Positions 4,905 through 48,659 of a stretch of DNA of 64,000 nucleotides are shown in pieces (the first letter of the stretch is position 1; every line of letters begins with the position of its first letter). Source of the DNA: an uncultured Candidatus Saccharibacteria bacterium (GTDB lineage Bacteria > Patescibacteriota > CPR2 > UBA1875 > CAIMLA01); NCBI GenBank assembly GCA_964594415.1, contig CAZQLQ010000005.1, positions 96-64,095 on the forward strand. Reading direction: 5' to 3'. The translations under genes were made by a program, and so were the position numbers. Below the pieces are notes generated by a model. It made no database searches and was not told the origin of the DNA. It worked only from the letters and a program-made list of their open reading frames with translations.

Positions 4905-7535
4905 TTAGCTTCCACAACATTTTTTGTATTTTTTACCGCTTCCACAAGGGCAGGGATCGTTTCTGCCTGCCTTGTCCTTGCTTCGTACAACTTGTTTTTC
5001 TCTTTTCTCAGCTTCTTTTGCCTGTGGTGTGGCTTTTTTGGCAGCTTGGGTAAGCTTGGTATCTGCTTCAGCTACCTGTTTTGTTATTTCAACTCTAAAT
5101 ATAAGATTTAGCATTTCGGCATCAATTCCTGCAAGTAGCGTATGAAACATCTTGTATGATTCGTTCTTGTACTCAATAAGAGGATCTTTTTGCCCATATC
5201 CGCGAAGGCCTATGCCTTCTCTGAGGTTGTCCATAGCGTCCAGATGGTCTATCCAGAGCATATCAATTGTCCTTAGATAAAGGGCTTTTTCTAAAATCCT
5301 CATCATCTCGCTTGAAATTCTCGTTTCTTTCTCTTCATAGTTTTTGTATAACAGTTCCTTGGCGGCTTCTATAACAGTGTCAGGATATTTATTTTTGATA
5401 TTTTTGAAAAAGTTGGTTTTTTGACCTAAGGTTTTGTCTAGCTCGTTTTCAATCTTCTCAATTTCAACCTCTCCTATAATCTCGTTTGTATTTGAATTAA
5501 CTATATCTGCGATTCTTTCAGAAATGATTTCAAGAACTTCTTCTTTTAGGTTTTCAGAAGACAAAACATTCCGGCGCATCTTGTAGATGTATTCACGCTG
5601 TTTGTTCATTACGTCATCGTATTCAACTAGGTGTTTTCTGATATCAAAGTTGTGACCTTCAACTTTTCTTTGGGCCGATTCAAGTGACTTGGATATCATA
5701 GAATGCTGTATAGGTTGGTCTTCAGGCAGGCCGAGTCTTTCCATAACAGCACCTACTCTTTCGCTACCGAAAATGCGCATCAAGTCATCTTCGAGTGAAA
5801 CAAAAAATTGTGTAGATCCGGGATCTCCTTGGCGTCCGGCACGACCACGAAGCTGATTGTCAATTCTTCTGGATTCATGCCTTTCCGTACCGATAATATG
5901 CAATCCGCCAAGTTCGGCGACCCCTTTCCCAAGAACTATATCGGTTCCTCTTCCGGCCATATTTGTAGCCACAGTAACTGCTCCCTTTTGTCCAGCGTTT
6001 TTGACGATTAGAGCTTCCCTTTCGTGGTTTTTGGCGTTTAAAAGCTCGTGTTTTATCCCGCTTCTTTTTAATAAATCTCCCAGTATTTCATTTTTTTCAA
6101 TTGAAACGGTACCGACCAAAACCGGTTGGCCTTTTTCGTGCTTTTCTTTTATATCTTCAACTACGGCAAGAAATTTACCTTTTTCTGTTTTGTATATCAC
6201 GTCATTCAAATCAATTCTGATATTTTTTCTGTTTGTAGGGATTTTTATTACCTCTAATCTATAAATTTTTGAAAATTCCTCTGCTTCTGTAGACGCTGTA
6301 CCTGTCATACCGGCTAGTTTTATATAAATTCTGAAATAATTTTGAAATGAAATTGTGGCCAGAGTTAGGGACTCTCTTTTTATCTCTACCCCTTCCTTTG
6401 CTTCGATGGCTTGATGCAGCCCTTCACTGTAACGACGGCCGAACATTAGTCGTCCTGTGAACTCATCAACTATAACAATTTCCCCATCTTTGACTACATA
6501 ATCAACATCTTTTTTGAATATTGCGTTTGCCTTAAGCGCCTGTTCAATGTGATGAACATTTTCAATTCCGTATTCTTCGTAAATGTTCTCAACGCCTAGT
6601 AGTCTTTCCATATGAGCAATTCCGTCATCTGTTAAGGAAACTGCTTTCTGCTTCTCGTCAATCGTATAGTCCGTTTCTATGCTCAGTTGTTTTACTAGAC
6701 GATCAATAGAGATATACTTGTCGGTACTTTCTTCAGCTGGCGCAGAAATAATCAATGGAGTTCTTGCTTCATCAATAAGAATTGAGTCTACTTCGTCAAC
6801 AATCGCATAATGAAGCGGTCTTTGAACCATTTGCTCAAGATTTTGAACCATATTATCTCGCAGATAATCAAAGCCATATTCGTTATTTGTTCCATAAGTA
6901 ATATCTGCCTGATATGCCTCTTTTCTTGTCACGGGCCTTAAATGCTCTGTGGTCTCGTCCAGGACGTTCTCCTGAGCGTATTCCGGGTCGTAAACAAAAG
7001 CTGCGTCATGAACGATAACGCCTGTTGTAAGGCCAAGAAAGTGGTAAATTTGACTCATCCAGCCAGCATCTCTACGTGCCAGATAGTCGTTTACGGTGAC
7101 TACATGTACCCCTTTGCCAGTAAGAGCGTTAAGAGTAACCGGCAGGGTTGCCACAAGGGTCTTTCCTTCACCTGTAAGCATTTCGGCAATGTTTCCATCA
7201 TTTAGAACCATACCACCGATCAATTGGACATCGTAATGTCTTTGCCCGATTGTTCTTTTGGACGCTTCTCTCGTTAGGGCGTAAACTTCAGCAAGATAAT
7301 CAGAAAGAATGTCATTTTCTACTTTTTTCTCGGATTCCTTGTCTTCTGTTTTTTGCAAGGATTCTTCAAGTCTTTTCTTTATTTCCTCCGAAATAGCGTT
7401 GACTCGCAATTTGATTTCTTCGTCGCTTAATTTAACTATTTTTTCTTCGAAACTGTTAATTTCCTCGACCTTCTTTTTCAGCTTTTCTATCTTTTTCTGA
7501 TTGGGGTCGCTTATGAACTTTTTTAAAAATGACAT
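4905..7535 (-). CDS. secA: Preprotein translocase ATPase SecA
   Basis: DEAD-like motor motifs, 876 aa, and a C-terminal zinc finger 'CPCGSGKKYKKCCG'. Confidence 0.9.
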   Translation of the reverse strand: MSFLKKFISDPNQKKIEKLKKKVEEINSFEEKIVKLSDEEIKLRVNAISEEIKKRLEESLQKTEDKESEKKVENDILSDYLAEVYALTREASKRTIGQRHYDVQLIGGMVLNDGNIAEMLTGEGKTLVATLPVTLNALTGKGVHVVTVNDYLARRDAGWMSQIYHFLGLTTGVIVHDAAFVYDPEYAQENVLDETTEHLRPVTRKEAYQADITYGTNNEYGFDYLRDNMVQNLEQMVQRPLHYAIVDEVDSILIDEARTPLIISAPAEESTDKYISIDRLVKQLSIETDYTIDEKQKAVSLTDDGIAHMERLLGVENIYEEYGIENVHHIEQALKANAIFKKDVDYVVKDGEIVIVDEFTGRLMFGRRYSEGLHQAIEAKEGVEIKRESLTLATISFQNYFRIYIKLAGMTGTASTEAEEFSKIYRLEVIKIPTNRKNIRIDLNDVIYKTEKGKFLAVVEDIKEKHEKGQPVLVGTVSIEKNEILGDLLKRSGIKHELLNAKNHEREALIVKNAGQKGAVTVATNMAGRGTDIVLGKGVAELGGLHIIGTERHESRRIDNQLRGRAGRQGDPGSTQFFVSLEDDLMRIFGSERVGAVMERLGLPEDQPIQHSMISKSLESAQRKVEGHNFDIRKHLVEYDDVMNKQREYIYKMRRNVLSSENLKEEVLEIISERIADIVNSNTNEIIGEVEIEKIENELDKTLGQKTNFFKNIKNKYPDTVIEAAKELLYKNYEEKETRISSEMMRILEKALYLRTIDMLWIDHLDAMDNLREGIGLRGYGQKDPLIEYKNESYKMFHTLLAGIDAEMLNLIFRVEITKQVAEADTKLTQAAKKATPQAKEAEKREKQVVRSKDKAGRNDPCPCGSGKKYKKCCGS

Positions 7536-7579
7536 AATTTTCCTACGAAACTTCCTTCTTTAATGTTATTAGAATGCGT

Positions 7580-7945
7580 TTACTCTTTTTCTTGCTTAAA
7601 TACTCTTCTTAGTATCTCTTTCCCTTGTCGATAGAGCTTCACTTTTCCCGGTTCTTTTTTGCTTTTCTCTTTATCTAATTGTCGAGAAAGTTTTCTCTCG
7701 AGTTCGTCAATTGCAGCAAATATGTTTTTGGCTTCCCCGGTGGCAGAAATATCGTTTCCAGGAATTTGAACTAGTGCTTTTGCAACTGCTGCAGTACGCT
7801 CTTTTTTGTTGTGATCTTCTTCTAGGGTTAGCTCAATCGCAATTATTGACTTATTGTATTTTATTAATTTATTGGCTTTTTTCTCTGCGTATTTTTTTAT
7901 TTCTGGGGTTAAGTAGGTCTCATGCCCTTTAATTGTTGTCTTCAT
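7580..7945 (-). CDS. hpf: Ribosome hibernation promoting factor (RaiA/YfiA family)
   Basis: 'TPEIKKYAEKKANKL...IELTLEEDHNKKERTAAVAKALVQIPGNDISATGEAKNIFAAIDELERKL'. Confidence 0.75.
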   Translation of the reverse strand: MKTTIKGHETYLTPEIKKYAEKKANKLIKYNKSIIAIELTLEEDHNKKERTAAVAKALVQIPGNDISATGEAKNIFAAIDELERKLSRQLDKEKSKKEPGKVKLYRQGKEILRRVFKQEKE

Positions 7946-7957
7946 GTTGCCTCCTTT

Positions 7958-9223
7958 TTAATTACGCGATATTTTATCTTTTCCTATGTATTCTTGCAAT
8001 ACTTTGGGAATGGTTATCTCTCCGTTCTTGGTTTGGTTATTCTCCATAATCGCTATAAGCGCTCTGGTGATCGCAATCGCTGTGCCATTTAGCATACTTA
8101 CAAACTTCTTCTTTCCGTCATCGTCTTTATACTTGATATTTAAGCCCCTTGCCTGATAATCGGTGCAGTTTGAGGTAGAGGTAATTTCTGCCCAATCTCC
8201 CATCCCGTTATTCTTGTTTGGTTTTCCTGGCATCCAGGCTTCTAGGTCGTATGTTCGGATTGCTGGAGTTCCTAGATCGGCTGTACAGTGATCAATTATT
8301 CGATATGGGATTTCAAGTCCGTTGAATATCTCTTTTTCAATTTCAAGAAGCTCTTTATGTGCGCTCTCGGCATTTTCTGGTAATACGTATTGAAACATCT
8401 CAATTTTAGTAAACTGATGAACCCTGAAAATTCCCTTAGAAAATTTTGAATATGATCCTGCTTCTGTCCTAAAACAATGGGAAACAGCAACGTATTTTTT
8501 GGGAAGCTCAGTTTTTTCAAAAACCTCATTCATATGATAGCCTCCCATTGTAATCTCTGCCGTTCCGATAAGCGATAAGTCAGTATTCTCAATATTATAA
8601 ACTTGCGTTGATTCTCCTCTTGGGTTAAATCCAAGTCCTTCCAAAACCTCTCTTTTTGCTATATCTGGAGTTGAAAATGGTATAAATCCATGCCTAGTGA
8701 CTACTTTTAGAGCGTATTGGATCAAGGCAAACTCCAAAAGAGCCAACTCATTTTTCAAATAATAAAATTTTGCACCAGTCACCTTCGTAGCTCTTTCAAA
8801 GTCAACCAAATCAAGTTTTTCTGAAAGGGCTACATGATCAAGGGGTGCGAAATCAAAATCAGTCGGCTCCTTTACGATCTCCAGTATTGGATTGTCGTCT
8901 TCATTCTCGCTAATAAACACTTCGCTGTGTGTTTTGTTCGGTATTTGAAACAGAATTTCTTTGTACTCAGTCTCTATTTTTTCAAGCTCTTTTGAAAGTT
9001 CGTCCTCCCTCTCTTTATCGAAAGTGAGTTTTTTCAATTCTTCGTCTGTCGGCTTATTTTTTAACAGGTTCTTTTTGGCTCTAATTTCATCTATTTGAAG
9101 AATTAGTTCGGAACGTTTATTGTCTAGTTCGAAAAATCTATCAAGGTCTGCTTTACTGCCGCGATTTTTTATATTATTCCTAACTTCGTCTGGATTTTCT
9201 CTTATATAGTTTATATCTAACAT
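7958..9223 (-). CDS. serS: Seryl-tRNA synthetase
   Basis: N-terminal coiled-coil arm 'LDINYIRENPDEV...' plus a class II core. Confidence 0.85.
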   Translation of the reverse strand: MLDINYIRENPDEVRNNIKNRGSKADLDRFFELDNKRSELILQIDEIRAKKNLLKNKPTDEELKKLTFDKEREDELSKELEKIETEYKEILFQIPNKTHSEVFISENEDDNPILEIVKEPTDFDFAPLDHVALSEKLDLVDFERATKVTGAKFYYLKNELALLEFALIQYALKVVTRHGFIPFSTPDIAKREVLEGLGFNPRGESTQVYNIENTDLSLIGTAEITMGGYHMNEVFEKTELPKKYVAVSHCFRTEAGSYSKFSKGIFRVHQFTKIEMFQYVLPENAESAHKELLEIEKEIFNGLEIPYRIIDHCTADLGTPAIRTYDLEAWMPGKPNKNNGMGDWAEITSTSNCTDYQARGLNIKYKDDDGKKKFVSMLNGTAIAITRALIAIMENNQTKNGEITIPKVLQEYIGKDKISRN

Positions 9224-19672: not shown

Positions 19673-20926
19673 TTATACCACCTGTGGTGTTGCTACACTC
19701 AAGGTTTTTATCTCGTTTTCAACGAGATTATTTTCAATCTCTGCTAGTTTTTCCTCCACTCTGAAAATAAAGTCAGTAATCACGTTTGCAAAAAAGATGT
19801 ATCCATCATGCGGTCTTTCATAAGCACTAAAATATTTGTGTACGTCACCATCGTTAAAATATTTGGTGCACATATAATAAAAGTTATCTGAAGTTTGTAA
19901 TTTACGCCATTCATTTAGTAAAGTTTCGTCACAGCATTTTTTTACTTTTTCTTCTATTTGGTATAAAAGATCGAGCGAGGTTCTTTGCATATGGTTCCCT
20001 ATCCAGGCTGAAAGGTCCCGTTCAGTATCTGCCCAAGAAACAGGCTCTACCATCGATATTTTATCCATAGCGGGGTATCTTTTTGCCTCTTCGCTTACTG
20101 TAATGAAGTCCATATCCGAATGTTTAAAAATTTCCTCAGGCATATGTCGCATAAAATCAAAAATTCCGGTATCTGCCCACTGGTGTTCACCAAACGTCTC
20201 GTAGTCCATAAATAGATTAATTACCTGTCCATTACCGTTAACTGCGGTTACCCATGAGGCAAATTTTTCAGCGCTCAGCGGCCATTCTTGCCAGGCTCTA
20301 TTTGAGAAACGAAATGCGATATCGTCAGAAAGCTTATAATTCTTCAGTAGTAATCTAACTGGCGCATCTACGGCCTCATATACGAAATTTGGGCTTTTCC
20401 AGTGAAGAACCTTATCCCAGCCTTCCGCTAGAACTGCCTTAAATCCGAGCGTAGAAACCATTTTCGATAAATAATCAAAATATACCAGCTCTGTATTTCT
20501 GAATACTTTTGGTTTTTTACCAAAAAGTTTTTCAATAGTTTCCATATGCTTTTTAACTTGTTCAAGAAATTCTTTTTCCGAGTAGATAGAAGCTAGGGAA
20601 TGATAATATGTTTCAGCTAAGAACTCCACGTGTCCTGTGGCTGCAAGTTCTTGAAAGCTTTGAATGAGGTCTGGGCGCCATTTTTGAGCTTGATCTAGGA
20701 AAGTTCCGGAAATACTATAGCTTATCTTGAATTTACCGTCGTATTTTTTTATCAACTCAAGAAGTAATTTATTTGTTGGTACGTAACATTTTGTTGCAAC
20801 TTTGTTTAGAATCGCTTTATTTTTTTTATCATCAAAATAATTTTCATTTTTTCCAATATCAATGACACGAAAATCCTTGATTCTTTCCGGCTGGTGAACG
20901 TGAAAATACATGCAAACGCTAGGCAT
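19673..20926 (-). CDS. Glycoside hydrolase family 57 protein (alpha-glucan branching or 4-alpha-glucanotransferase-like)
   Basis: N-terminal 'YFHVHQP' (GH57 HQP motif), 'ISGTFLDQ', and 'HVEFLAETYYH'. Confidence 0.55.
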   Translation of the reverse strand: MPSVCMYFHVHQPERIKDFRVIDIGKNENYFDDKKNKAILNKVATKCYVPTNKLLLELIKKYDGKFKISYSISGTFLDQAQKWRPDLIQSFQELAATGHVEFLAETYYHSLASIYSEKEFLEQVKKHMETIEKLFGKKPKVFRNTELVYFDYLSKMVSTLGFKAVLAEGWDKVLHWKSPNFVYEAVDAPVRLLLKNYKLSDDIAFRFSNRAWQEWPLSAEKFASWVTAVNGNGQVINLFMDYETFGEHQWADTGIFDFMRHMPEEIFKHSDMDFITVSEEAKRYPAMDKISMVEPVSWADTERDLSAWIGNHMQRTSLDLLYQIEEKVKKCCDETLLNEWRKLQTSDNFYYMCTKYFNDGDVHKYFSAYERPHDGYIFFANVITDFIFRVEEKLAEIENNLVENEIKTLSVATPQVV

Positions 20927-22187
20927 TTTTCACTCCTTTTAAGGTTCTTTTATATACTTCATTCATTTCTTTTGCAGCTTTTTCCCAGGTTAATAATTTT
21001 GCTTCTGCCTTTGCGTTTTTTACTAGCTCTTTAGCGTATTCTTCGTCTTCGAGTATTTTAATAATCTCCTCAGAGGTTTTTTCGATGTCCCAGAAGTCAA
21101 CTTTTACGGATGACTTTAGAACTTCTGAAATTCCAGAATTTTTGGAAATAACTACTGGTGTCCCATTTTGGGTTGCCTCTAAAGGTACAAGACCAAATGG
21201 TTCAGAAACGGATGGCATTACAAATACGTCAGCCATCTGGTAGGCCATATCTTGATCGGCATTTGCTAACCAGCTTGTATAAAGCAATTTTCCAGTTAAG
21301 CCTTCCCTGGCTCCCTCTTCAATTAATTTATTCTGCATATCACCAGGACCTACCATCATAAATTTTACATTAGGATGCAAATCAGTTACTCTTTTCGCTA
21401 CTTTTAAAAAGTAATCTGGCCCTTTTTGATACGTAATTCTTCCCAGGTATAAAACTATTTTAAAATGCTTCTTTATCGGGTTCTCTGGATATTTAATGAC
21501 TTCCCGGGGGGTAATACCATTATGGACGACATCGATTTTGTTAGGATTAACCCCATAATTATCACAAATAACTTTCTTTGTATAGTTGCTTACCGCGACA
21601 ATTCTATTTGCAGCTTTAAGCCCTTTCTTTTCTGTCTCATAAATATATTTTCCGTCATGTCTGTCAATTTCTGTGGCATGAACTTGAGTAAGCAAAGGCA
21701 CGTTTCTTCCTTTTTTCTTGGCTACGTTTCTTGCGGCTATTCCAGCCTGATAAGTCATCCAGTCGTGTGCGTGAATTATGTCATAATCTAGGTTTTCGCA
21801 AAGAGCTTTAACTCCCTTGATGTATAAATTGACATTTGGCAAAACTGATTTCTCTTGATCAAATAAACATGCTGTACACATCAGAGATTCATCGATTTTT
21901 ACGCTAAAACCTTGGTATCCATTTACTAAGGAGCATTTATTCTTTTTAGCCATCTTAAGGCAATATTCATCATGCTCATCCCCAAATATTTGTTTTGATG
22001 CGTCTAGAACGTTCATCCATGAGTAATCACCGCCATAAATCTTTGGCAATATAAAATCAATCTCCACTCCAAGGCCGGCAAGGCCTTTTGTGAGTCCCTC
22101 ACAAGCATTACCTAACCCACCGGAGTGAAAGGGCGGCAATTCCCAACCAAGCATCAAGACTTTTATGGCCCCCTCCTGTGTATTCAT
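20919..22187 (-). CDS. glgA: Glycogen/starch synthase-like glycosyltransferase (GlgA-like, GT5/GT4)
   Basis: 'GWELPPFHSGGLGNA', 'IIHAHDWMTYQAG', and 'MPSVSEPFGLVPLEA' parallel GlgA motifs. Confidence 0.6.
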   Translation of the reverse strand: MNTQEGAIKVLMLGWELPPFHSGGLGNACEGLTKGLAGLGVEIDFILPKIYGGDYSWMNVLDASKQIFGDEHDEYCLKMAKKNKCSLVNGYQGFSVKIDESLMCTACLFDQEKSVLPNVNLYIKGVKALCENLDYDIIHAHDWMTYQAGIAARNVAKKKGRNVPLLTQVHATEIDRHDGKYIYETEKKGLKAANRIVAVSNYTKKVICDNYGVNPNKIDVVHNGITPREVIKYPENPIKKHFKIVLYLGRITYQKGPDYFLKVAKRVTDLHPNVKFMMVGPGDMQNKLIEEGAREGLTGKLLYTSWLANADQDMAYQMADVFVMPSVSEPFGLVPLEATQNGTPVVISKNSGISEVLKSSVKVDFWDIEKTSEEIIKILEDEEYAKELVKNAKAEAKLLTWEKAAKEMNEVYKRTLKGVKNA

Positions 22188-22244: not shown

Positions 22245-22264
22245 AGCCGACGTTATTGTCGGCT
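22245..22264 (-). terminator. Intrinsic terminator overlapping the stop of the 22263..22601 gene
   Basis: agccgacg-ttat-tgtcggct hairpin flanked by A/T runs. Confidence 0.6.
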
Positions 22265-22601
22265 AAAAATGTGTTGGATGGGGCGATCTGGGAGTTAGAC
22301 GTTTTTTTTCTATTGAAATATTTTGTTCAACTATGTTTTCGATTCTTAAATTGTAAATATCTTTGTAATCATACCAATCTTTTGTTTGAATTATCTCTTT
22401 TCGAATTTTCCAGATAAGAACTTCGATCAAATAGTCTTCATAATAACTTCTGTCAAATTTTCTTTTATATGCGTTTAGAGTAATATCATCCGTTTCGATA
22501 TCTAAAAAAATAACATGAAATCCTTTTAGAAAAACCTTAACTTGTACAGAAATTTGTGCATCGTTTTGTTTCTTAAAAGATATTTGTTGCAACTGCTTCA
22601 C
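22263..22601 (-). CDS. Hypothetical protein
   Basis: ORF only. Confidence 0.35.
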   Translation of the reverse strand: MKQLQQISFKKQNDAQISVQVKVFLKGFHVIFLDIETDDITLNAYKRKFDRSYYEDYLIEVLIWKIRKEIIQTKDWYDYKDIYNLRIENIVEQNISIEKKRLTPRSPHPTHF

Positions 22602-22625
22602 CGCCTTTAACTCAAGTTCTACAAA

Positions 22626-22946
22626 CTACGATGTCAATACCATGTAATGCACATAAAAGATGTTGTTCAGATGAATATTCTTTATTTTTATTTTTAGTCG
22701 TTGGACGATACCTGTTTTTCTTGCTTCCAACCTGATCAAATGCAACAATCTCTCATTCATTAGCATATCTAGCGGGCATTCTGGATCATTATAGATGAAA
22801 GCAGTTATTAACCATTGATAGATAGTGAGTTTGAGCTCTACTTGTTCTGGCCCTAGTTTGATAACAAACTTTGCTTTGACCGGCTTATCTTTTTTGACGG
22901 AGATCACTTGTATTCCCTCCTTTTCTATTTGATTATTAATGTTCAT
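22626..22946 (-). CDS. Hypothetical protein
   Basis: ORF only. Confidence 0.35.
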   Translation of the reverse strand: MNINNQIEKEGIQVISVKKDKPVKAKFVIKLGPEQVELKLTIYQWLITAFIYNDPECPLDMLMNERLLHLIRLEARKTGIVQRLKIKIKNIHLNNIFYVHYMVLTS

Positions 22947-23035: not shown

Positions 23036-23341
23036 TTATTTTTCTGCTTTTTTGTCTAGTTTATCTACGCCAAGCTTCTTGACCCCGAAATATACCACAA
23101 AAGCAATTACTAGAAAATCGATTAATATACTTGCAAAGTTACCCCAAGATATTGTTGCTTCCCCTACTTCATAAGTAGCCTTTTGAAGCCCTTCAGTGGA
23201 GCCGAGAACTAGCCCAAGCAGAGGGTTAATAATATCTGTTACTAATGAGGATACTACTTTGGCGATCGCGCCTCCTAGAATAAATCCTACCGCAAGACCG
23301 ACAACGCCCTGCTCTCTAATAAAATTAATAAATCCTTTCAT
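23036..23341 (-). CDS. mscL: Large-conductance mechanosensitive channel
   Basis: 'FIREQGVVGLAVGFILGGAIAKVVSSLVTDIINPLLG'. Confidence 0.85.
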   Translation of the reverse strand: MKGFINFIREQGVVGLAVGFILGGAIAKVVSSLVTDIINPLLGLVLGSTEGLQKATYEVGEATISWGNFASILIDFLVIAFVVYFGVKKLGVDKLDKKAEK

Positions 23342-23455: not shown

Positions 23456-26400
23456 ATGGAAACTGGATTTCAAATATTTTTTGATATTACTGGAAGGAGG
23501 CGTAAGATTACGGACTTCTTTCTTTCGATTTTTCTAATCTTTTCAAGTTGCTTACTGCTTTTTATAGGAGCCAAAATCATTGGCGTGGAGGGTATAAAGA
23601 AAATAGGGAAAAAGATAAATAATCAAGAATATAGTCATGAAACAAAAGTTGCTATGTTATATACAGAAAATCATGAAAGCTCCTTAAAAATTTTTAGCGA
23701 GCAAGTGAGCAATCTTGATACATTGATCGTCCCAAGGTATCTCATTGCAGACAAAGTAATTAATATACCAGAAGACTATGAATTGCTAGTAAAAAACATG
23801 GAGTATATTGAAACAAATAGCCCGACACATTACAAAAAATTTTTTTTATTGAGCGAAGTTAATTATTCTATACCTCCAACTGAGCGCCAAAACAGAAGAG
23901 TAAATAATGACTTTATCTACCTGGGAGAGAAAAACTTAGATCAGATAGTCAATGATTTGGTAAAAAATGATATCGACGGCTTGTTATTGGAGGTTGACTT
24001 TAGCGATCTAGAAGCCGAAACTTTATTGCCTCAATATTTGAATCAGATAAATACAATAAAGAGACTTTTTGAAATTAACAATCTCAAATTGGGACTTAAG
24101 TTTAGAATTAACGACTTCAGCGAAAAAAAATTAGATTTTTTCTCCAGGGCTGATCTTTTATATATTGATTACGATTACTCATCAGGATTTAATTTAGCCT
24201 TGAATAGTTTTTCTGAAAAAAAAGACTTACTCGGAGGTAAAAAAATTATTTTTGAATTACCCACTATATCACAAAAAACAAGCCTTGATTTGTCAAATGA
24301 TTATATTAATAGTATTGATTATGCCGAAATAGAGAAATTGATTCTTGAAACAAAAATTAGTAACAGGGATTTTGAGGACCCAGCTTTTACCAGAGATAAT
24401 TTTAAATATATATTAAGAGACGCAGTCAGCTCATATAATTACATGACCAAAATAGAGTCTAATACTTTGTCTGGCAGTAACGAGATTATGGAATATTCTG
24501 TCTGCGATCCTGGATTTGAAGAGTTTACGGTATGGAATATTATTACTGATAATTTTAGTTCTGAAAAAATTAGTTTGTTATCTAATAATATAAAATCTAC
24601 CGTCAAAGTAAACTTATTGGGTGAAGGAAAAATATTTGGTGTTTATGACTCATCAGAATTTGGTATAAGAGAGTTGGAAACGGATGGCAACAACACAATA
24701 ATCACTAGCACAGTAAAAAAGAGTTATAAGCCAGGAACAGTTATAAAATCGGGGAAAAAGGAAAATAAGATTGCACTAACCTTTGACGACGGTCCTCACC
24801 CTGTCTATACGAAAAAGATTTTAGATATTTTAGACAAATATAATGTAAAGGCAACATTTTATATGGTTGGTGAAAATATAGCCTCTTATCCTTCATTGGC
24901 AAAAGAGATTGCTGATAAAGGGCATGAGATAGAAAACCATAGTTATAGCCACCCGCATTTCAACTTTTTGGACGCCGAGTCATTAGTCAATCAGATTGCT
25001 TCTGATAATAAATTAATAGAAGAGATTACTGGTAAAAAGCCAAAATATTTTCGTCTCCCCTATGGAGAGGATAACGAGCTTGATACATCATCTGATTTTG
25101 AGTATTTATTGATGCTTAAAAATGAAGGCCTTAAAGCAAGTGAGTACGATATTGACTCAAAGGATTGGACTTCTTCCAGTGGTAAGCAGATAGAAGATAA
25201 GGTAATAAATGATATTGAGAAGTCAAATGGTAATTACAGTCAAATACTGTTTCATGATTCTAGTGTCAATTCCATAAAGACCATAGAAGCTCTTCCTCAA
25301 ATCATTGAGTATTTAATGAAAAAAAATATAGAGATCGTTCTTGTAAGCGAATTATCACAAGAAGAAAAGCAGCAAAACTCAAATGTAACAAATATTAGTA
25401 CTGCAATTGATTTAATGAACAAGATTATGAAATTTTTTTCATATCTAATGATTTTCTTTTTTGGCTTTTCAGTCTTTAAATACACCTGGGTCATTGTTGG
25501 GATGGTTATCTACAATATAAAGAGAGTCCTTAAAAACAACAAAACAAAGGAAGTAACCGAATATAACAAGAAGATATCTATAATAATTGCTTGTTATAAT
25601 GAGGAAAAGGTTATCGGAAAGACGATTGAGTCTTTACAACTAAATGGTTATCACAATATAGAAATTATTATTTCTAACGATGGTTCAGTTGATAAGACAG
25701 CGGAAATAGTAAGAGAATATGCATCTTCTGACGATAGAATCGTTTTATTGGATCTTGAACACGGCGGGAAAGCGAAGGCAATTGATGCAGGTATTTATGC
25801 GAGTACTGGCGAATGGCTTGTTTTTTGCGACGCTGATACGATTTTTAAAAAAGATTCAATAAAAAAATTCTCTAATTTGATTGCGCAAAACGGAAAATTG
25901 GCAGCTGTTGCAGGAAGAATTCTTGTTGGTAATAATCTTAACTTATTAACATATTCTCAGTTTATTGAATATGCTATTGCACATCGTTTCTTGAAGCCCA
26001 CACAAGATGTATTCAATTCAATTACTGTGGTTCCTGGCGCTATTGGGCTTTGGAATAAATCAAAGCTTTTAAAAGCAGGTGGTTTTGCTCCGAATACTCT
26101 CGCAGAAGACGCAGACACGACGATAAAAGTAGTAAGTCTTGGCAATAGAGTGAGATTTGACGACGACGTTGTGGCGAAAACTGAAGTTCCGGAAACCTTG
26201 AGAATGTTGTTTAAGCAAAGAACGAGGTGGCAACTTGGAAATATGCAAGCGTTAAGGAAACATTACAAGGGCTTTATGAACTACAGATATGGCCCAATAG
26301 GATTTATCGGGCTGCCCATGCTTTTTATTGAGATCACAAATGCTGTTTTGTTTCCTATGTTTATCCTTTTTATTGCTTGGCTTTTTATCGCTGATTATAA

Positions 26401-26704
26401 CAATATGAGTTATGTTTTTTCAGCTATGCAGGTCGAATATATTTATTCGGAAACTTTTAGGCAAATGTCAATGGCCTTACTTTTATTTGAAATATTCTTA
26501 TGTGTAGGGTCAATTACGGTTGAAGAGGCTTATCCAAGAACTAAGCTAACTGCTTTTGCTACCCTACCCTTCTATTTTACTTTTTATAAGTTTTTTTTAA
26601 GTTATTGTGCGATAGTTTCATTCCTCCGGGCATTAAGAGGAACAAGTCAGGGCTGGGGCCATATGACAAGGACCTCGCATGTCAAGTTGAAGGATGTTGT
26701 ATAA
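23456..26704 (+). CDS. Multidomain membrane protein: N-terminal TM and ~380-aa domain of unknown fold, then a NodB polysaccharide deacetylase, then a processive family-2 glycosyltransferase (NodC/PgaC/chitin-synthase-like) with C-terminal TM helices
   Basis: NodB domain 'ALTFDDGPHPVYTKKILDILDKYNVKATFYMVGENI...HSYSHP'. GT2 domain 'ISIIIACYNEEK', 'CDADT', and 'QRTRWQLG' (QxxRW motif). Confidence 0.7.
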   Translation: METGFQIFFDITGRRRKITDFFLSIFLIFSSCLLLFIGAKIIGVEGIKKIGKKINNQEYSHETKVAMLYTENHESSLKIFSEQVSNLDTLIVPRYLIADKVINIPEDYELLVKNMEYIETNSPTHYKKFFLLSEVNYSIPPTERQNRRVNNDFIYLGEKNLDQIVNDLVKNDIDGLLLEVDFSDLEAETLLPQYLNQINTIKRLFEINNLKLGLKFRINDFSEKKLDFFSRADLLYIDYDYSSGFNLALNSFSEKKDLLGGKKIIFELPTISQKTSLDLSNDYINSIDYAEIEKLILETKISNRDFEDPAFTRDNFKYILRDAVSSYNYMTKIESNTLSGSNEIMEYSVCDPGFEEFTVWNIITDNFSSEKISLLSNNIKSTVKVNLLGEGKIFGVYDSSEFGIRELETDGNNTIITSTVKKSYKPGTVIKSGKKENKIALTFDDGPHPVYTKKILDILDKYNVKATFYMVGENIASYPSLAKEIADKGHEIENHSYSHPHFNFLDAESLVNQIASDNKLIEEITGKKPKYFRLPYGEDNELDTSSDFEYLLMLKNEGLKASEYDIDSKDWTSSSGKQIEDKVINDIEKSNGNYSQILFHDSSVNSIKTIEALPQIIEYLMKKNIEIVLVSELSQEEKQQNSNVTNISTAIDLMNKIMKFFSYLMIFFFGFSVFKYTWVIVGMVIYNIKRVLKNNKTKEVTEYNKKISIIIACYNEEKVIGKTIESLQLNGYHNIEIIISNDGSVDKTAEIVREYASSDDRIVLLDLEHGGKAKAIDAGIYASTGEWLVFCDADTIFKKDSIKKFSNLIAQNGKLAAVAGRILVGNNLNLLTYSQFIEYAIAHRFLKPTQDVFNSITVVPGAIGLWNKSKLLKAGGFAPNTLAEDADTTIKVVSLGNRVRFDDDVVAKTEVPETLRMLFKQRTRWQLGNMQALRKHYKGFMNYRYGPIGFIGLPMLFIEITNAVLFPMFILFIAWLFIADYNNMSYVFSAMQVEYIYSETFRQMSMALLLFEIFLCVGSITVEEAYPRTKLTAFATLPFYFTFYKFFLSYCAIVSFLRALRGTSQGWGHMTRTSHVKLKDVV

Positions 26705-27581
26705 TATATACATGATAAAAAAACAAATTTTAATTTTTGTTCTTGTTTTTAGTGTTTTTATAAGACCTAGCTCTGTTCTTGCGTTAAGCGATAGGGCAAA
26801 TATTGTTGGTGCTACTTATTATGGCGGCTACTTTGACGAAGAACAAGACAGCTGGTTTATTGATAACGTAAATCAGTGCACAAGAATTGAGAATGGCGAG
26901 TTTACGGCAGAATCACTTGGAGCAAAGATTAGTGAGGAATGTAGTGACGATAATGGTCTTGGATATGTTGATAATGAGCCGTTACACAATAGAGTCAGTT
27001 TCGCAGAGCTCAGTAATAATTACCTGGATCCTGATTTTGCGGCACTTGGAGATTTGCCATACGGTTCCAAATTAGAGATCAATTATAACGGAAAGTGCCT
27101 TATAGCAGAAAAACTAGACATAGGGCTTGGCGGGACTGATGTGAAGGATTATCATCGGTCAATCGATTTATGGTGGCAGACCGCCAAAACTCTTGGCTTT
27201 GAGAGTGGTTTTGATGTGGTATCGGTCAGGTTAGTGGATGCCAACACGCCTCTCACTCCCTTAGGCAAACTAATAAAATGTAGCGACACATCCACTACTG
27301 CAACAGCAGTTTCTAGCACGCAAAGTCAAAGTCAGACTTATCCTACAACAACTATTTCAACAAAAAGCTTGGGTGGTGATCAAGTCGCCTCGAAAAGCAA
27401 ATTAAAAACACAGGAAAACGAAGAAGAGAGCAGGTTTTTGTTTAATAACCTTTGCATTTTATTAGGAATAATCATTGGTTTTATATCAATTGGATTATCG
27501 TGGTATTTCTTGTTTTATAAAAAAAAGCAAATAAAAAAAGCTCGCTTTGGTAAGCGAGCTCGTAAGGGCAAAATTACTTAG
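26694..27581 (+). CDS. Secreted 3D-domain / RlpA-like double-psi beta-barrel protein with C-terminal TM anchor
   Basis: Signal peptide 'ILIFVLVFSVFIRPSSVLA'. 'PYGSKLEINYNGKCLIAEKLDIGLGGTDVKDYHRSIDLWWQTAKTLGF' resembles the 3D/YuiC/RlpA DPBB. An S/T-rich linker precedes a TM helix and a basic tail. Confidence 0.5.
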   Translation: MLYNIYMIKKQILIFVLVFSVFIRPSSVLALSDRANIVGATYYGGYFDEEQDSWFIDNVNQCTRIENGEFTAESLGAKISEECSDDNGLGYVDNEPLHNRVSFAELSNNYLDPDFAALGDLPYGSKLEINYNGKCLIAEKLDIGLGGTDVKDYHRSIDLWWQTAKTLGFESGFDVVSVRLVDANTPLTPLGKLIKCSDTSTTATAVSSTQSQSQTYPTTTISTKSLGGDQVASKSKLKTQENEEESRFLFNNLCILLGIIIGFISIGLSWYFLFYKKKQIKKARFGKRARKGKIT

Positions 27582-28536: not shown

Positions 28537-29565
28537 ATGGACAAAGTTGAAATCAACAAGTTGCTTGAGAGGTTTTATGAACAGAATCCGGACTTTCTTG
28601 ATTGTAAGGTAGAATTGATAAAAAGTGGTAACAATAGATCGACATATTTACTCGAATCAAAAAGCGGTAAAAAGCTAATACTCAAAAAGTCTCATGCTAA
28701 AAACGATCTTCCCTTTTCGAGTTTAAATGATGTCCGGGTTCAGACTTTTATCAAGTCTTTAGGTTATGATTTTGTGCCCGAAATAATATTCTGTGACAAA
28801 GGAAATGAATATTTCATAGAAGCCTACGTTGGTGAAGAAAATATTAAAGTCAATGATATGAGTGACGAGTTACTCGAGGTTTTTGCCAAACAGTTAGCCG
28901 AGGTTCATAAGCAGACCTTTAGTCAATATCAAGAGTTTTGTAAAAAAAATGATTTTGAGGTTCCTAAGGCTATATTACCGGAAGAAAGTCTGAAGATTTT
29001 TGGTTTTAACAGATTTGAAATTGTTGAAAAACTATGTGAAGACAAGGAGGTCGTTAACTGTCTTAAAGGTCAACTAAATGCAAATCTTGAATTATTAAGA
29101 AAAAATAAGACTTCTGTTGATTCTGCTCACTTATTGTGGGGCATAATCGGTAATGAAATGCGTTTTAGTGGAGATAAAATTTATTTTGTGGGTTGGGAGT
29201 TTTCGAGAGTTGGAAATGGTTCAGAACTTTCTTTCATGAAAATCCATTCCGGTATAAATGAAAACGTTCTCAAAAAAATAATTGCTTTATATTCAAAATA
29301 TAGCGGGAAAACAGAAGAAGAGTTATATGAAGAAATTAAAATTGAAGAGAAAATTACAAGAGTAAATGATGCTATCTGGGCTACGATGAAATGGTGTGAA
29401 TCGGAAACAGAAGAAGACAAGGAGAAATATAAAGAACTGACTTTTGAACGTTTAAATCTTACTAAATTCGTATTATTTTCATTACCATTTTGGTTTTCAT
29501 TTTTAAACCTCCAATCAGGTTCTGATTTACTTTCGGTAATCGCTTTATTGTTTGCAACTTTGTGA
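28537..29565 (+). CDS. APH/choline-kinase-fold phosphotransferase-like protein with substituted catalytic residues (putative pseudokinase) and a C-terminal membrane anchor
   Basis: Gly-rich region 'KSGNNRSTYLL', 'LILKK', hinge 'FIEAYVGEE'. The catalytic-loop-like 'LLWGIIGNEMRF' has no His or Asp. The Mg-site-like 'VGWEFSRVGNG' replaces the 'IDWE' Asp with Gly. The hydrophobic C-terminus is 'FVLFSLPFWFSFLNL...VIALLFATL'. Confidence 0.45.
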   Translation: MDKVEINKLLERFYEQNPDFLDCKVELIKSGNNRSTYLLESKSGKKLILKKSHAKNDLPFSSLNDVRVQTFIKSLGYDFVPEIIFCDKGNEYFIEAYVGEENIKVNDMSDELLEVFAKQLAEVHKQTFSQYQEFCKKNDFEVPKAILPEESLKIFGFNRFEIVEKLCEDKEVVNCLKGQLNANLELLRKNKTSVDSAHLLWGIIGNEMRFSGDKIYFVGWEFSRVGNGSELSFMKIHSGINENVLKKIIALYSKYSGKTEEELYEEIKIEEKITRVNDAIWATMKWCESETEEDKEKYKELTFERLNLTKFVLFSLPFWFSFLNLQSGSDLLSVIALLFATL

Positions 29566-30454: not shown

Positions 30455-30529
30455 TGGCTGGGGAGGAGGGATTCGAACCCCCGAATGCCGGGACCAAAAC
30501 CCGGTGCCTTACCACTTGGCGACTCCCCA
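30455..30529 (-). tRNA. tRNA-Gln (anticodon UUG)
   Basis: RC reads TGGGGAG-TC-GCCA-AGTGGTAA-GGCA-C-CGGGT-TTTTGGT-CCCGG-CATTC-GGGGG-TTCGAAT-CCCTC-CTCCCCA-G-CCA. It has U1:A72, a 7-bp acceptor stem, anticodon loop UUUUGGU, a TPsiC loop TTCGAAT, and an encoded CCA. Confidence 0.85.
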
Positions 30530-48454: not shown

Positions 48455-48483
48455 GACTGTACTCCTACGTTTTATTAAAAAAA

Positions 48484-48503
48484 TCTTCGCGTAACCGAAG
48501 ATT
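48484..48503 (-). promoter_or_regulatory. Hairpin plus U-tract in the rplJ leader, about 30 nt upstream of the start (putative attenuator or L10-leader element, or glyA terminator)
   Basis: atcttcg-cgtaac-cgaagat stem followed on the minus strand by T8, then the SD 'aggag' and ATG. Confidence 0.45.
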
Positions 48504-48659
48504 AAAATAACTAAATTACTTTATCCTCGGTAGCAAATTAAGTCTAGTTGTGCTGACAGCTACTGTCTACGGAATATTTTATTTACAGAAATTCTCTATT
48601 TCTTGACTACAACAATTTATCAAAAATTTAATCTAAAGTCAATACTTTTAATCCTGTTA

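Follow-up and report, generated by a model that had tools for sequence, protein, structure and literature searches.

In a 64,000-nucleotide stretch of contig CAZQLQ010000005.1 (assembly GCA_964594415.1, positions 96 to 64,095) from an uncultured Candidatus Saccharibacteria bacterium, hereafter called the window, two adjoining genes encode a 1082-residue multidomain membrane protein, which carries a CE4 deacetylase and a GT2 glycosyltransferase on one polypeptide, and a secreted, membrane-anchored protein termed ORF2. We propose, with a probability of about 0.62, that this two-gene unit would constitute a self-contained synthase-dependent system for the coupled synthesis, export and partial de-N-acetylation of a surface polymer of N-acetylglucosamine (poly-GlcNAc). 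Its best analogy would be the production of poly-N-acetylglucosamine (PNAG) by MatAB of Streptomyces.

A first-pass annotation of this DNA had described the larger gene as a NodB-type deacetylase fused to a NodC-like synthase behind an unknown N-terminal domain, and by pointing to systems in which synthase and deacetylase are separate proteins it had implied that the fusion was new. That implication does not hold. Streptomyces MatB, which joins an extracellular CE4 domain, a transmembrane (TM) helix and an intracellular PgaC-like GT2 domain in one polypeptide, is tied to PNAG by mutants: the polymer, identified by the F598 antibody and by its sensitivity to dispersin B, disappears when matA or matB is lost (PMC5972031; PMC4391728). 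Fusions of a glycosyltransferase with a PgaB deacetylase were noted in a systematic survey of exopolysaccharide operons (PMC7112194), and NCBI has in use the product name [quoted passage not shown]. Synthase-deacetylase fusion is already known and widespread; what is new is the Saccharibacteria version, with a degenerate GH18 module and a conserved partner of double-psi beta-barrel (DPBB) fold. The present analysis corrects the view of the fusion as unusual and identifies the "unknown" N-terminal domain.

A deacetylase and a processive synthase on one polypeptide

The listing of open reading frames (ORFs) placed both genes where they had been annotated, at 23456..26704 (1082 amino acids, aa) and 26694..27581 (295 aa), on the plus strand, as are all features of the pair given below. 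From its N terminus the larger product comprises a short cytoplasmic motif, a first TM helix (TM1), a GH18-like barrel, a beta-rich linker, the CE4 domain, a second TM helix (TM2), the GT2 domain and a C-terminal TM bundle, as defined by the ORF itself, by Pfam and NCBIfam domains and by comparison with 15 full-length homologues (1077-1104 aa, 36-42% identity). These homologues come from independent assemblies and have the whole architecture in common; in reference genomes, all close relatives that turned up are from Candidatus Saccharibacteria or Saccharimonadia, which places the window in a Saccharibacteria (Patescibacteria) genome.

The CE4 (NodB-homology) de-N-acetylase domain, at aa 433-640 (24752..25375) and predicted to be extracytoplasmic, is recognized by PF01522 over aa 433-541 (E 8e-38; 129.6 bits against a gathering cutoff of 23.1), by matches to solved structures and by the five motifs of the family: MT1, TFDD, with the base and a metal-binding Asp (T442-F-D444-D445); MT2, H(S/T)xxH, with the metal-binding His pair (H495/H499); MT3, RxPY (R533-x-P535-Y536); MT4, DxxDW (D567/D570-W571); and MT5, LxH, with the acid His (L598-x-H600). 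In the alignment these residues are invariant in 15 of 15 sequences, the single exception being Y536 (14 of 15). Among solved structures the CE4 domain comes nearest to GlcNAc deacetylases that act on chitin or peptidoglycan (E 1e-33 to 1e-30), and its best matches are PgdA, PdaB and PdaC; PgaB and IcaB were not among the solved-structure matches at E<1e-10. Kinship of the ectodomain with E. coli PgaB was considered and rejected, as the alignment is confined to the TFDDG segment; the CE4 domain is not an orthologue of PgaB or IcaB.

The GT2 catalytic domain occupies approximately aa 700-940 (25553..26275), where Pfam GT2 models (PF00535/PF13641) match aa 707-927 and matches to Chitin_synth_2 are also present. 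Its signatures NDGS, CDADT (the DxD motif), AEDAD and QRTRW are retained in the homologues, with D742, D792-A-D794, E884-D885 and Q921-R-T-R-W925 all invariant (15/15). Both marks of a processive synthase are found, the GT-A motifs and TM helices that flank the glycosyltransferase domain (aa 663-685, and segments within aa 947-1060). Among NCBIfam models PgaC_IcaA scored best (aa 666-1062, 190.6 bits), ahead of NodC (68.2) and CelA (40), and BLASTP aligned the domain with E. coli PgaC at 29% identity over 295 aa (E 1e-36); "PgaC/IcaA-like" therefore describes the synthase better than the "NodC-like" of the first-pass annotation. Such scores and identity, taken with a CE4 domain close to GlcNAc deacetylases, make a GlcNAc-based polymer likely, of either beta-1,6 or beta-1,4 linkage.

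Hydropathy and charge indicate how the chain would be threaded through the membrane. TM1 (approximately aa 20-42, 23513..23581; hydropathy 2.53) is preceded by RRRK on its N-terminal side and predicted to run from inside to outside; TM2 (approximately aa 663-685, 25442..25510), marked by hydropathy and by seven Lys or Arg residues after the helix, would return the chain to the cytoplasm. The BLASTP alignment with E. coli PgaC begins at TM2, which pairs with the PgaC helix preceding its glycosyltransferase domain. The Lys/Arg clusters before TM1 and after TM2 obey the positive-inside rule, so that the intervening 620-aa segment is predicted to lie outside and GT2 inside, in agreement with the topology first proposed. 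The C-terminal bundle (approximately aa 947-1060, 26294..26635), presumed to form the polymer channel, includes hydrophobic segments at aa 947-982 and 1003-1025, and the PgaC_IcaA model reaches aa 1062. Between the barrel and CE4 lies a beta-rich linker (approximately aa 386-431, 24611..24748) of pattern G-x-G-Q-I-Y ... G-x-R ... S, modeled as five strands, with G389, G391, G403 and R405 invariant; it belongs to no assigned family and is kept from Saccharibacteria to Bacillus and Acidobacteria, aligning in both clades.

Could so long a protein be an artefact, of assembly or of a frameshift that joined separate genes? The thought arises from broken versions at three related loci (L014, L085 and L086), but it is effectively refuted, and we give it next to no credence. 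The 15 full-length relatives, which come from different assemblies and agree in architecture, exclude a frameshift; at least 126 representative clusters are 1000 aa or longer; and in cultured bacteria with complete genomes and plasmids the protein is encoded by one gene of 1117-1149 aa. The fusion of CE4 with a processive GT2, each with intact catalytic residues, is real, and the motifs by which it was first recognized (TFDDGP, HSYSHP, CDADT and QRTRWQLG) are invariant in the 15 homologues. The broken versions themselves resemble frameshift errors. At L086 (5001-8281) the downstream ORF begins mid-domain, inside the conserved beta-linker, and the upstream ORF has neither N-terminal motif nor TM helix, so that a frameshift error is probable; the contig suffix "np1212" may denote a long-read assembly, which would make such an error likelier. 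We withdrew this locus and L085 (5001-8357) as evidence for natural two-gene versions of GH18 plus CE4-GT2. In the third case, a Saccharibacteria metagenome-assembled genome (L014; CAZTWB010000003.1, 5001-8224), the N-domain and the CE4-GT2 portion of the homologue lie in different frames (ORFs 5412-6290 and 6422-8227), the interruption being either a pseudogene or an assembly error.

A GH18-fold barrel with degenerate catalytic residues

The N-terminal domain (N-domain), predicted to be extracytoplasmic, had been left at first pass as an unknown domain that may be a hydrolase or export module. Profile comparison and structure modeling now identify it as a GH18-fold (beta/alpha)8 barrel (approximately aa 65-377, 23648..24586) whose canonical active site is no longer conserved within the Saccharibacteria clade. 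The window protein has no match to PF00704 (GH18) at E<0.1, and a sequence-profile search of the PDB with the N-domain returned chance matches only; profile-profile and fold comparison were needed. The profile of the Saccharibacteria N-domain aligned with the GH18 region of a Bacillus-type clade of relatives at 98.4% probability (hhalign; E 4e-15, 331 columns), and an AlphaFold2 (AF2) model of good quality (predicted local distance difference test, pLDDT, 84.7; predicted template modeling score, pTM, 0.86) retrieved with Foldseek a top 50 from the PDB consisting entirely of GH18 structures (best E 2.5e-11), among them the lectins YKL-39 and YKL-40 and the spore-cortex proteins SleL and YdhD. 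Homologues of the domain bear the name YaaH. Distant relatives of the same length, from Bacillus, Acidobacteria, Chitinophagaceae, Rhizomicrobium and others, do match PF00704 at the same position, in the order TM, GH18, CE4, TM, GT2.

We scored the canonical GH18 active site in both clades: DxxDxDxE with its proton-donor Glu, MxYD, YDW and the Trp of strand beta8. The Bacillus-type clade (n=22) keeps it, with D-x-E in 20 of 22 sequences, MxYD in 20-21, YDW in 19-22 and the beta8 Trp in 21. In the Saccharibacteria clade the proton-donor position holds Asp in 12 sequences, Asn in two and Glu in one, the preceding acid position is variable (E7/D5/N2/H1), neither MxYD nor YDW is present, and Ala, Ser or Cys stands in place of the beta8 Trp; the window protein reads L-L-L-E-V-D where GH18 enzymes read D-x-D-x-E. 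The clade nonetheless has invariant barrel residues of its own (Y236, E267, Y289, R304, D322, N328, E355, E356 and W360), and this set, together with the lost GH18 residues, indicates a domain that is under selection but is not a classical GH18 hydrolase.

Classical hydrolytic activity is accordingly unlikely on sequence grounds. Hydrolysis by a re-tooled site that trims or releases the polymer, with E267, E355, E356, D322 and Y236 as candidate residues, also strikes us as unlikely, though it can call on the acidic and aromatic residues peculiar to the clade and on the retention of D-x-E, MxYD and Trp by the Bacillus-type clade (at least 20 of 22 sequences), from which the ancestral domain was probably an enzyme. 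It has a precedent as well in the C-terminal domain of PgaB, at first taken to be non-catalytic and later found to cleave de-N-acetylated PNAG (PMC5933820). Against it stand the loss in Saccharibacteria of the proton donor, MxYD, YDW and beta8 Trp, and the presence of the catalytically dead YKL-39 and YKL-40 among the top structural matches. These two lectins have the GH18 barrel and bind GlcNAc oligomers but do not cleave them.

A short N-terminal motif and its possible relation to MatA

Directly before TM1, within the first 15 residues of the synthase, lies the predicted cytoplasmic motif FFDITGRR (aa 8-15, 23477..23500), of consensus FFDxSG(R/K)R, in which F8, D10, G13 and R15 are invariant in the homologue alignment. 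Of 163 family proteins of tri-domain size, 134 carry the motif in a broader form with a TM helix after it; the rest of these proteins gave 12 matches in 143,153 residues. It is absent from E. coli PgaC and PgaD. In two Streptomyces replicons the ORF directly upstream of a MatB-like gene has FVDASGRR or FVDSSGRR, then a TM helix and a Pro-rich tail, and at each of these loci that occurrence is the sole match to the strict motif in the six-frame translation. The CE4-GT2 protein of Kocuria rosea itself opens with FYDPSGKR and a TM helix. By sequence, then, the motif-TM1 module takes two forms: in the window protein, the tri-domain family and Kocuria it is fused, whereas Streptomyces has it as a separate protein at the MatA position. 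Sites matching F[FVY]DxSG[RK]R lie near nucleotide 3200 of locus L092, 2330 of L094 and 2470 of L093, the last being the Kocuria plasmid.

MatA is needed for PNAG production (PMC5972031). Combined with the shared motif, this requirement suggests that the N-terminal motif matters for function, as a PgaD/IcaD-like part of the synthase, a proposal founded on eight residues and their context. By the same reasoning F[FVY]DxSG[RK]R may be the functional core of MatA. Two candidates examined in this connection were set aside: the Streptomyces ORF at the MatA position is not a cryptic GH18 protein (hhalign E 0.89 against the N-domain profile; no Pfam match), and an actinomycetotal locus taken for MatB-like (L017) encodes a TM-CE4 protein only.

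A double-psi beta-barrel protein adjoins the synthase

ORF2 (26694..27581) encodes a secreted, C-terminally anchored protein composed of a signal peptide, a globular core of about 160 aa, a linker or stalk rich in Ser, Thr and Gln, a C-terminal TM helix and a basic tail. The core (aa 30-190 in the numbering of the 289-aa form, 26799..27281) contains four invariant Cys residues and invariant D136 and D152. The anchor (27429..27518; hydropathy 2.34, a helix in the model) precedes a Lys/Arg-rich tail predicted to be cytoplasmic; hydropathy and alignment bear out both the signal peptide and the anchor noted at first pass. With its start at ATG 26694, ORF2 overlaps the synthase gene by 11 nt, as first described; the public call for an identical protein (289 aa) begins at ATG 26712 and leaves a 7-nt gap, so that the overlap is real only with the earlier start. 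With either start the two genes are tightly linked.

The ORF2 family comprises at least 37 clusters (40-58% identity), and no Pfam match was found at E<10 in any of 21 members, nor any NCBIfam domain for ORF2 itself. Its AF2 model has mean pLDDT values mostly above 80 in 10-residue blocks across the core (range 53-95), and Foldseek matched it to PA4485 (E 3.9e-4, target-normalized TM-score 0.73), cerato-platanin, bacterial expansins, barwin and papain inhibitor. Profile alignment with hhalign against E. coli RlpA (E 0.15) and MltA (E 0.3) was non-significant; in the RlpA alignment the ORF2 strand K-x-D-x-G-x-G-G, with an invariant Asp, and R-x-I-D-L pair with N-D-R-G-P and R-V-I-S-L of RlpA. 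The earlier label "3D/RlpA-like" thus stands for the fold, a double-psi beta-barrel, and falls as a statement of sequence family.

The neighborhood proved to be conserved. Of 13 distinct Saccharibacteria loci that were informative, 11 have an ORF2 homologue directly downstream of the synthase gene; it is missing in L002 and L011, and L009 ends at a contig edge. Beside the inspected synthase relatives from outside Saccharibacteria (Bacillus, Deinococcus and others) it is absent.

Distribution of the tri-domain family

An exhaustive search of 1.84 billion representative proteins retrieved 1,298 clusters at E<=1e-30. Among the best 150 of these, 126 are at least 1000 aa long and therefore carry an extra N-terminal module, a minority being of MatB-like size (700-760 aa). 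Proteins of the order GH18-CE4-GT2 occur on large plasmids of cultured bacteria, namely Bacillus mycoides, B. nitratireducens, Novosphingobium, Sphingobium, Sphingomonas, Sulfitobacter, Deinococcus and Prevotella nigrescens, annotated merely as "glycosyltransferase"; in Bacillus, Deinococcus and other relatives outside Saccharibacteria the gene stands alone. Our literature search returned nothing relevant on Saccharibacteria with PNAG and no paper characterizing a GH18-CE4-GT2 protein.

Three plasmid loci deserve description. On the 322-kb plasmid p322 of Bacillus mycoides (L087, 3446-10830) a tri-domain gene of 1117 aa lies between two transposase genes of the insertion sequence family IS6, an arrangement which suggests that the single-gene polysaccharide machine is mobile. 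On a plasmid of Deinococcus sp. KNUC1210 (L088, 4945-10112) a gene for a sensor diguanylate cyclase comes after the tri-domain gene in the same orientation, which hints at control by cyclic di-GMP in some lineages; the Arg-rich N-terminal motif could be relevant to such control. On a Kocuria rosea plasmid (L093, 2467-5772) a convergent 328-aa "chitinase" gene lies 46 nt from the 757-aa CE4-GT2 gene. Its product is a weak GH18 match by Pfam (22.9 bits, below cutoff) and non-significant against the N-domain profile; it is an independent case of a GH18-type gene beside a CE4-GT2 synthase.

Genomic setting

Genes on the minus strand flank the synthase-ORF2 pair on both sides, which therefore forms a compact two-gene unit. 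Upstream are MscL (23036-23341, minus), two small unassigned ORFs, a GT4/GT5 glucan-synthase-like gene and a GH57 gene, and downstream of ORF2 are small unassigned ORFs; Dus is also among the neighbors. Inspection of the neighboring ORFs revealed no homologue of PgaA, PgaD, IcaC or IcaD, the accessory genes of pgaABCD and icaADBC operons. The GH57 and GT4/GT5 (starch-synthase-like) genes (19673-22187, minus) suggest alpha-glucan metabolism; MscL, GT5 and GH57 also occur near the synthase homologue of locus L003, so that this neighborhood is syntenic in related Saccharibacteria. The two small ORFs between MscL and the GT4/5 gene (112 and 106 aa, adjoining, 22263-22946, minus) have no Pfam match, and a 342-aa ORF at 28537-29565 (plus), with a hydrophobic C-terminal segment, has none at E<0.001. 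Rfam matches in the window comprise a ribosomal protein L10 leader and a tRNA (48468-48590 and 30458-30529, respectively, both minus), ordinary housekeeping features consistent with a chromosomal context.

Proposed function and alternatives

In the mechanism that we infer, which extends to the substrate, the product, the coupling of synthesis with deacetylation and the roles of the GH18-like domain, the N-terminal motif and ORF2, the cytoplasmic GT2 domain would polymerize UDP-GlcNAc and thread the chain through its own C-terminal TM channel. The CE4 domain, tethered about 20 residues from TM2, would partly de-N-acetylate the emerging chain and so render it cationic and adhesive, the GH18-fold barrel most likely binding or guiding the GlcNAc chain in the manner of a lectin, and the N-terminal motif with TM1 supporting synthase activity. 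ORF2, spanning the wall on its flexible stalk, would most likely bind or loosen glycan, either the polymer itself or peptidoglycan, to allow deposition of the polymer, conceptually as CslZ and LpmP assist CslA. If the envelope has a single membrane, as is reported for Saccharibacteria, an outer-membrane porin would not be needed.

Several observations count against this proposal. The GT2 domain, at 190.6 bits, falls well below the cutoff of 422.3 for the PgaC/IcaA equivalog (TIGR03937, PNAG synthase). The function of the GH18-CE4-GT2 arrangement is read from sequence and models, and the tie to MatA consists of the 8-residue motif and its context in two Streptomyces replicons. ORF2, missing in two of 13 loci and absent from relatives outside Saccharibacteria, would not be essential to the machine. 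By sequence the CE4 domain resembles enzymes that act on beta-1,4-GlcNAc, the chitin and peptidoglycan deacetylases, more than PgaB or IcaB, and GH18 folds classically bind beta-1,4-GlcNAc glycans; from these two features the polymer could be chitin- or chitosan-like instead of PNAG.

This last point leads to the alternative that we take most seriously while still doubting it, in which the same machine would make a beta-1,4-linked product, the GH18 fold offering a chitin-type binding groove and a CE4 of NodB/PgdA type converting nascent chitin to chitosan. All top Foldseek matches of the barrel belong to a fold for beta-1,4-GlcNAc substrates; the nearest solved CE4 structures favor it, PgaB and IcaB being absent at the threshold given and similarity to PgaB negligible; and the Chitin_synth_2 matches of the synthase and the weak GH18 "chitinase" gene adjoining the Kocuria CE4-GT2 gene fit as well. 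What speaks for the PNAG-like product is the GT2 domain, with 190.6 bits for PgaC_IcaA against 68.2 for NodC, and the example of MatB, whose CE4 is of the same PgdA/NodB-like type and whose product reacts with anti-PNAG antibody and is sensitive to dispersin B (PMC5972031). A further alternative, to which we assign a small chance, makes the unit chiefly a remodeler of the cell wall: CE4 would act on peptidoglycan GlcNAc as PgdA does, the GH18-like domain (as in SleL/YaaH) and the RlpA-like DPBB protein would attach to peptidoglycan or cleave it, and GT2 would supply a glycan linked to the wall. PgdA, PdaB and PdaC as best CE4 matches, SleL and YdhD as structural neighbors of an N-domain whose homologues are named YaaH, and a DPBB fold common to lytic transglycosylases can all be read in this sense, and the first paper on the mat genes raised a possible link with peptidoglycan (PMC4391728). 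The GT2 domain, however, has every signature of a processive synthase, including a TM bundle of the kind that forms a channel; the product of MatAB later proved to be PNAG (PMC5972031); and a CE4 domain tethered beside the channel fits action on a nascent chain. We retain synthesis, export and deacetylation of poly-GlcNAc as the preferred function.

Implications

A bolder and, as a whole, improbable extension of that function would make the tri-domain protein a one-polypeptide exopolysaccharide factory, in which FxDxSGRR with TM1 would be a fused MatA, an activator of PgaD/IcaD type, the pseudo-GH18 barrel a clamp feeding CE4, and the DPBB protein a wall-opening partner, together yielding in Saccharibacteria a cationic glue for host attachment. 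Saccharibacteria are reported to live attached to actinobacterial hosts. The interest of the system resides chiefly in the size of the tri-domain family, the motif link to MatA and this possible role at the Saccharibacteria surface and in attachment. The GH18-CE4-GT2 family is large and widespread, sometimes plasmid-borne and flanked by insertion sequences, and has been annotated as "glycosyltransferase" only. It offers as leads a minimal, one- or two-gene route to a de-N-acetylated GlcNAc polymer, of relevance to Saccharibacteria surface biology, to host attachment and to the production of chitosan- or PNAG-like material; FxDxSGRR beside a TM helix as a candidate functional element of Streptomyces MatA, a protein with no recognized domain; and, in its clades with intact and degenerate GH18, a natural comparison for the role of a chitinase-fold module in a synthase.

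Comparison with known systems

MatA and MatB of Streptomyces resemble the window system most closely. MatB, by its described architecture, has CE4, TM helix and GT2 in one polypeptide, with a CE4 closest to PgdA and NodB (PMC5972031; PMC4391728), likewise the type found in the window, and the gene upstream of Streptomyces MatB-like genes has the FxDxSGRR motif and TM helix that open the window protein. The window protein differs in carrying motif and TM1 in cis together with an extra GH18-fold barrel and beta-linker, which jointly span about 370 aa, and its locus has a DPBB protein as partner and no downstream icaC-like gene. PgaABCD of E. coli and IcaADBC of Staphylococcus likewise combine a synthase with a CE4 deacetylase acting outside the membrane, and the window GT2 is 29% identical to PgaC; here, in contrast, the deacetylase is fused and is not the PgaB/IcaB orthologue, PgaA porin, PgaD, IcaD and IcaC are lacking, and PgaC_IcaA scores below its cutoff.

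Nearest in domain order are the GH18-CE4-GT2 proteins of Bacillus mycoides, sphingomonads, Deinococcus, Prevotella and Acidobacteria, which have the same motif, beta-linker, CE4 and GT2 (28-32% identity over about 70% of the length) but keep the GH18 catalytic residues, reach the Pfam GH18 threshold and stand alone without a DPBB neighbor. The best structural counterparts of the N-domain, YKL-39/YKL-40, SleL and YdhD/YaaH, are only 10-15% identical to it in sequence, and the window domain is set apart by its membrane tether within a synthase and by its own invariant residues. For ORF2 the fold is that of the DPBB proteins (PA4485/RlpA-like, cerato-platanin, bacterial expansins and barwin), from which it differs in four conserved Cys, a Ser/Thr-rich stalk, a C-terminal TM anchor and the lack of a significant sequence match. 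By analogy only, the pairing of synthase and secreted partner may be compared with CslA-GlxA-CslZ-LpmP of Streptomyces, in which a GT2 glycan synthase is encoded with secreted proteins that locally remodel peptidoglycan and let the glycan reach the surface (PMC9040799), a task for which that system employs a lytic polysaccharide monooxygenase and a GH6 enzyme where the window unit has a DPBB protein.

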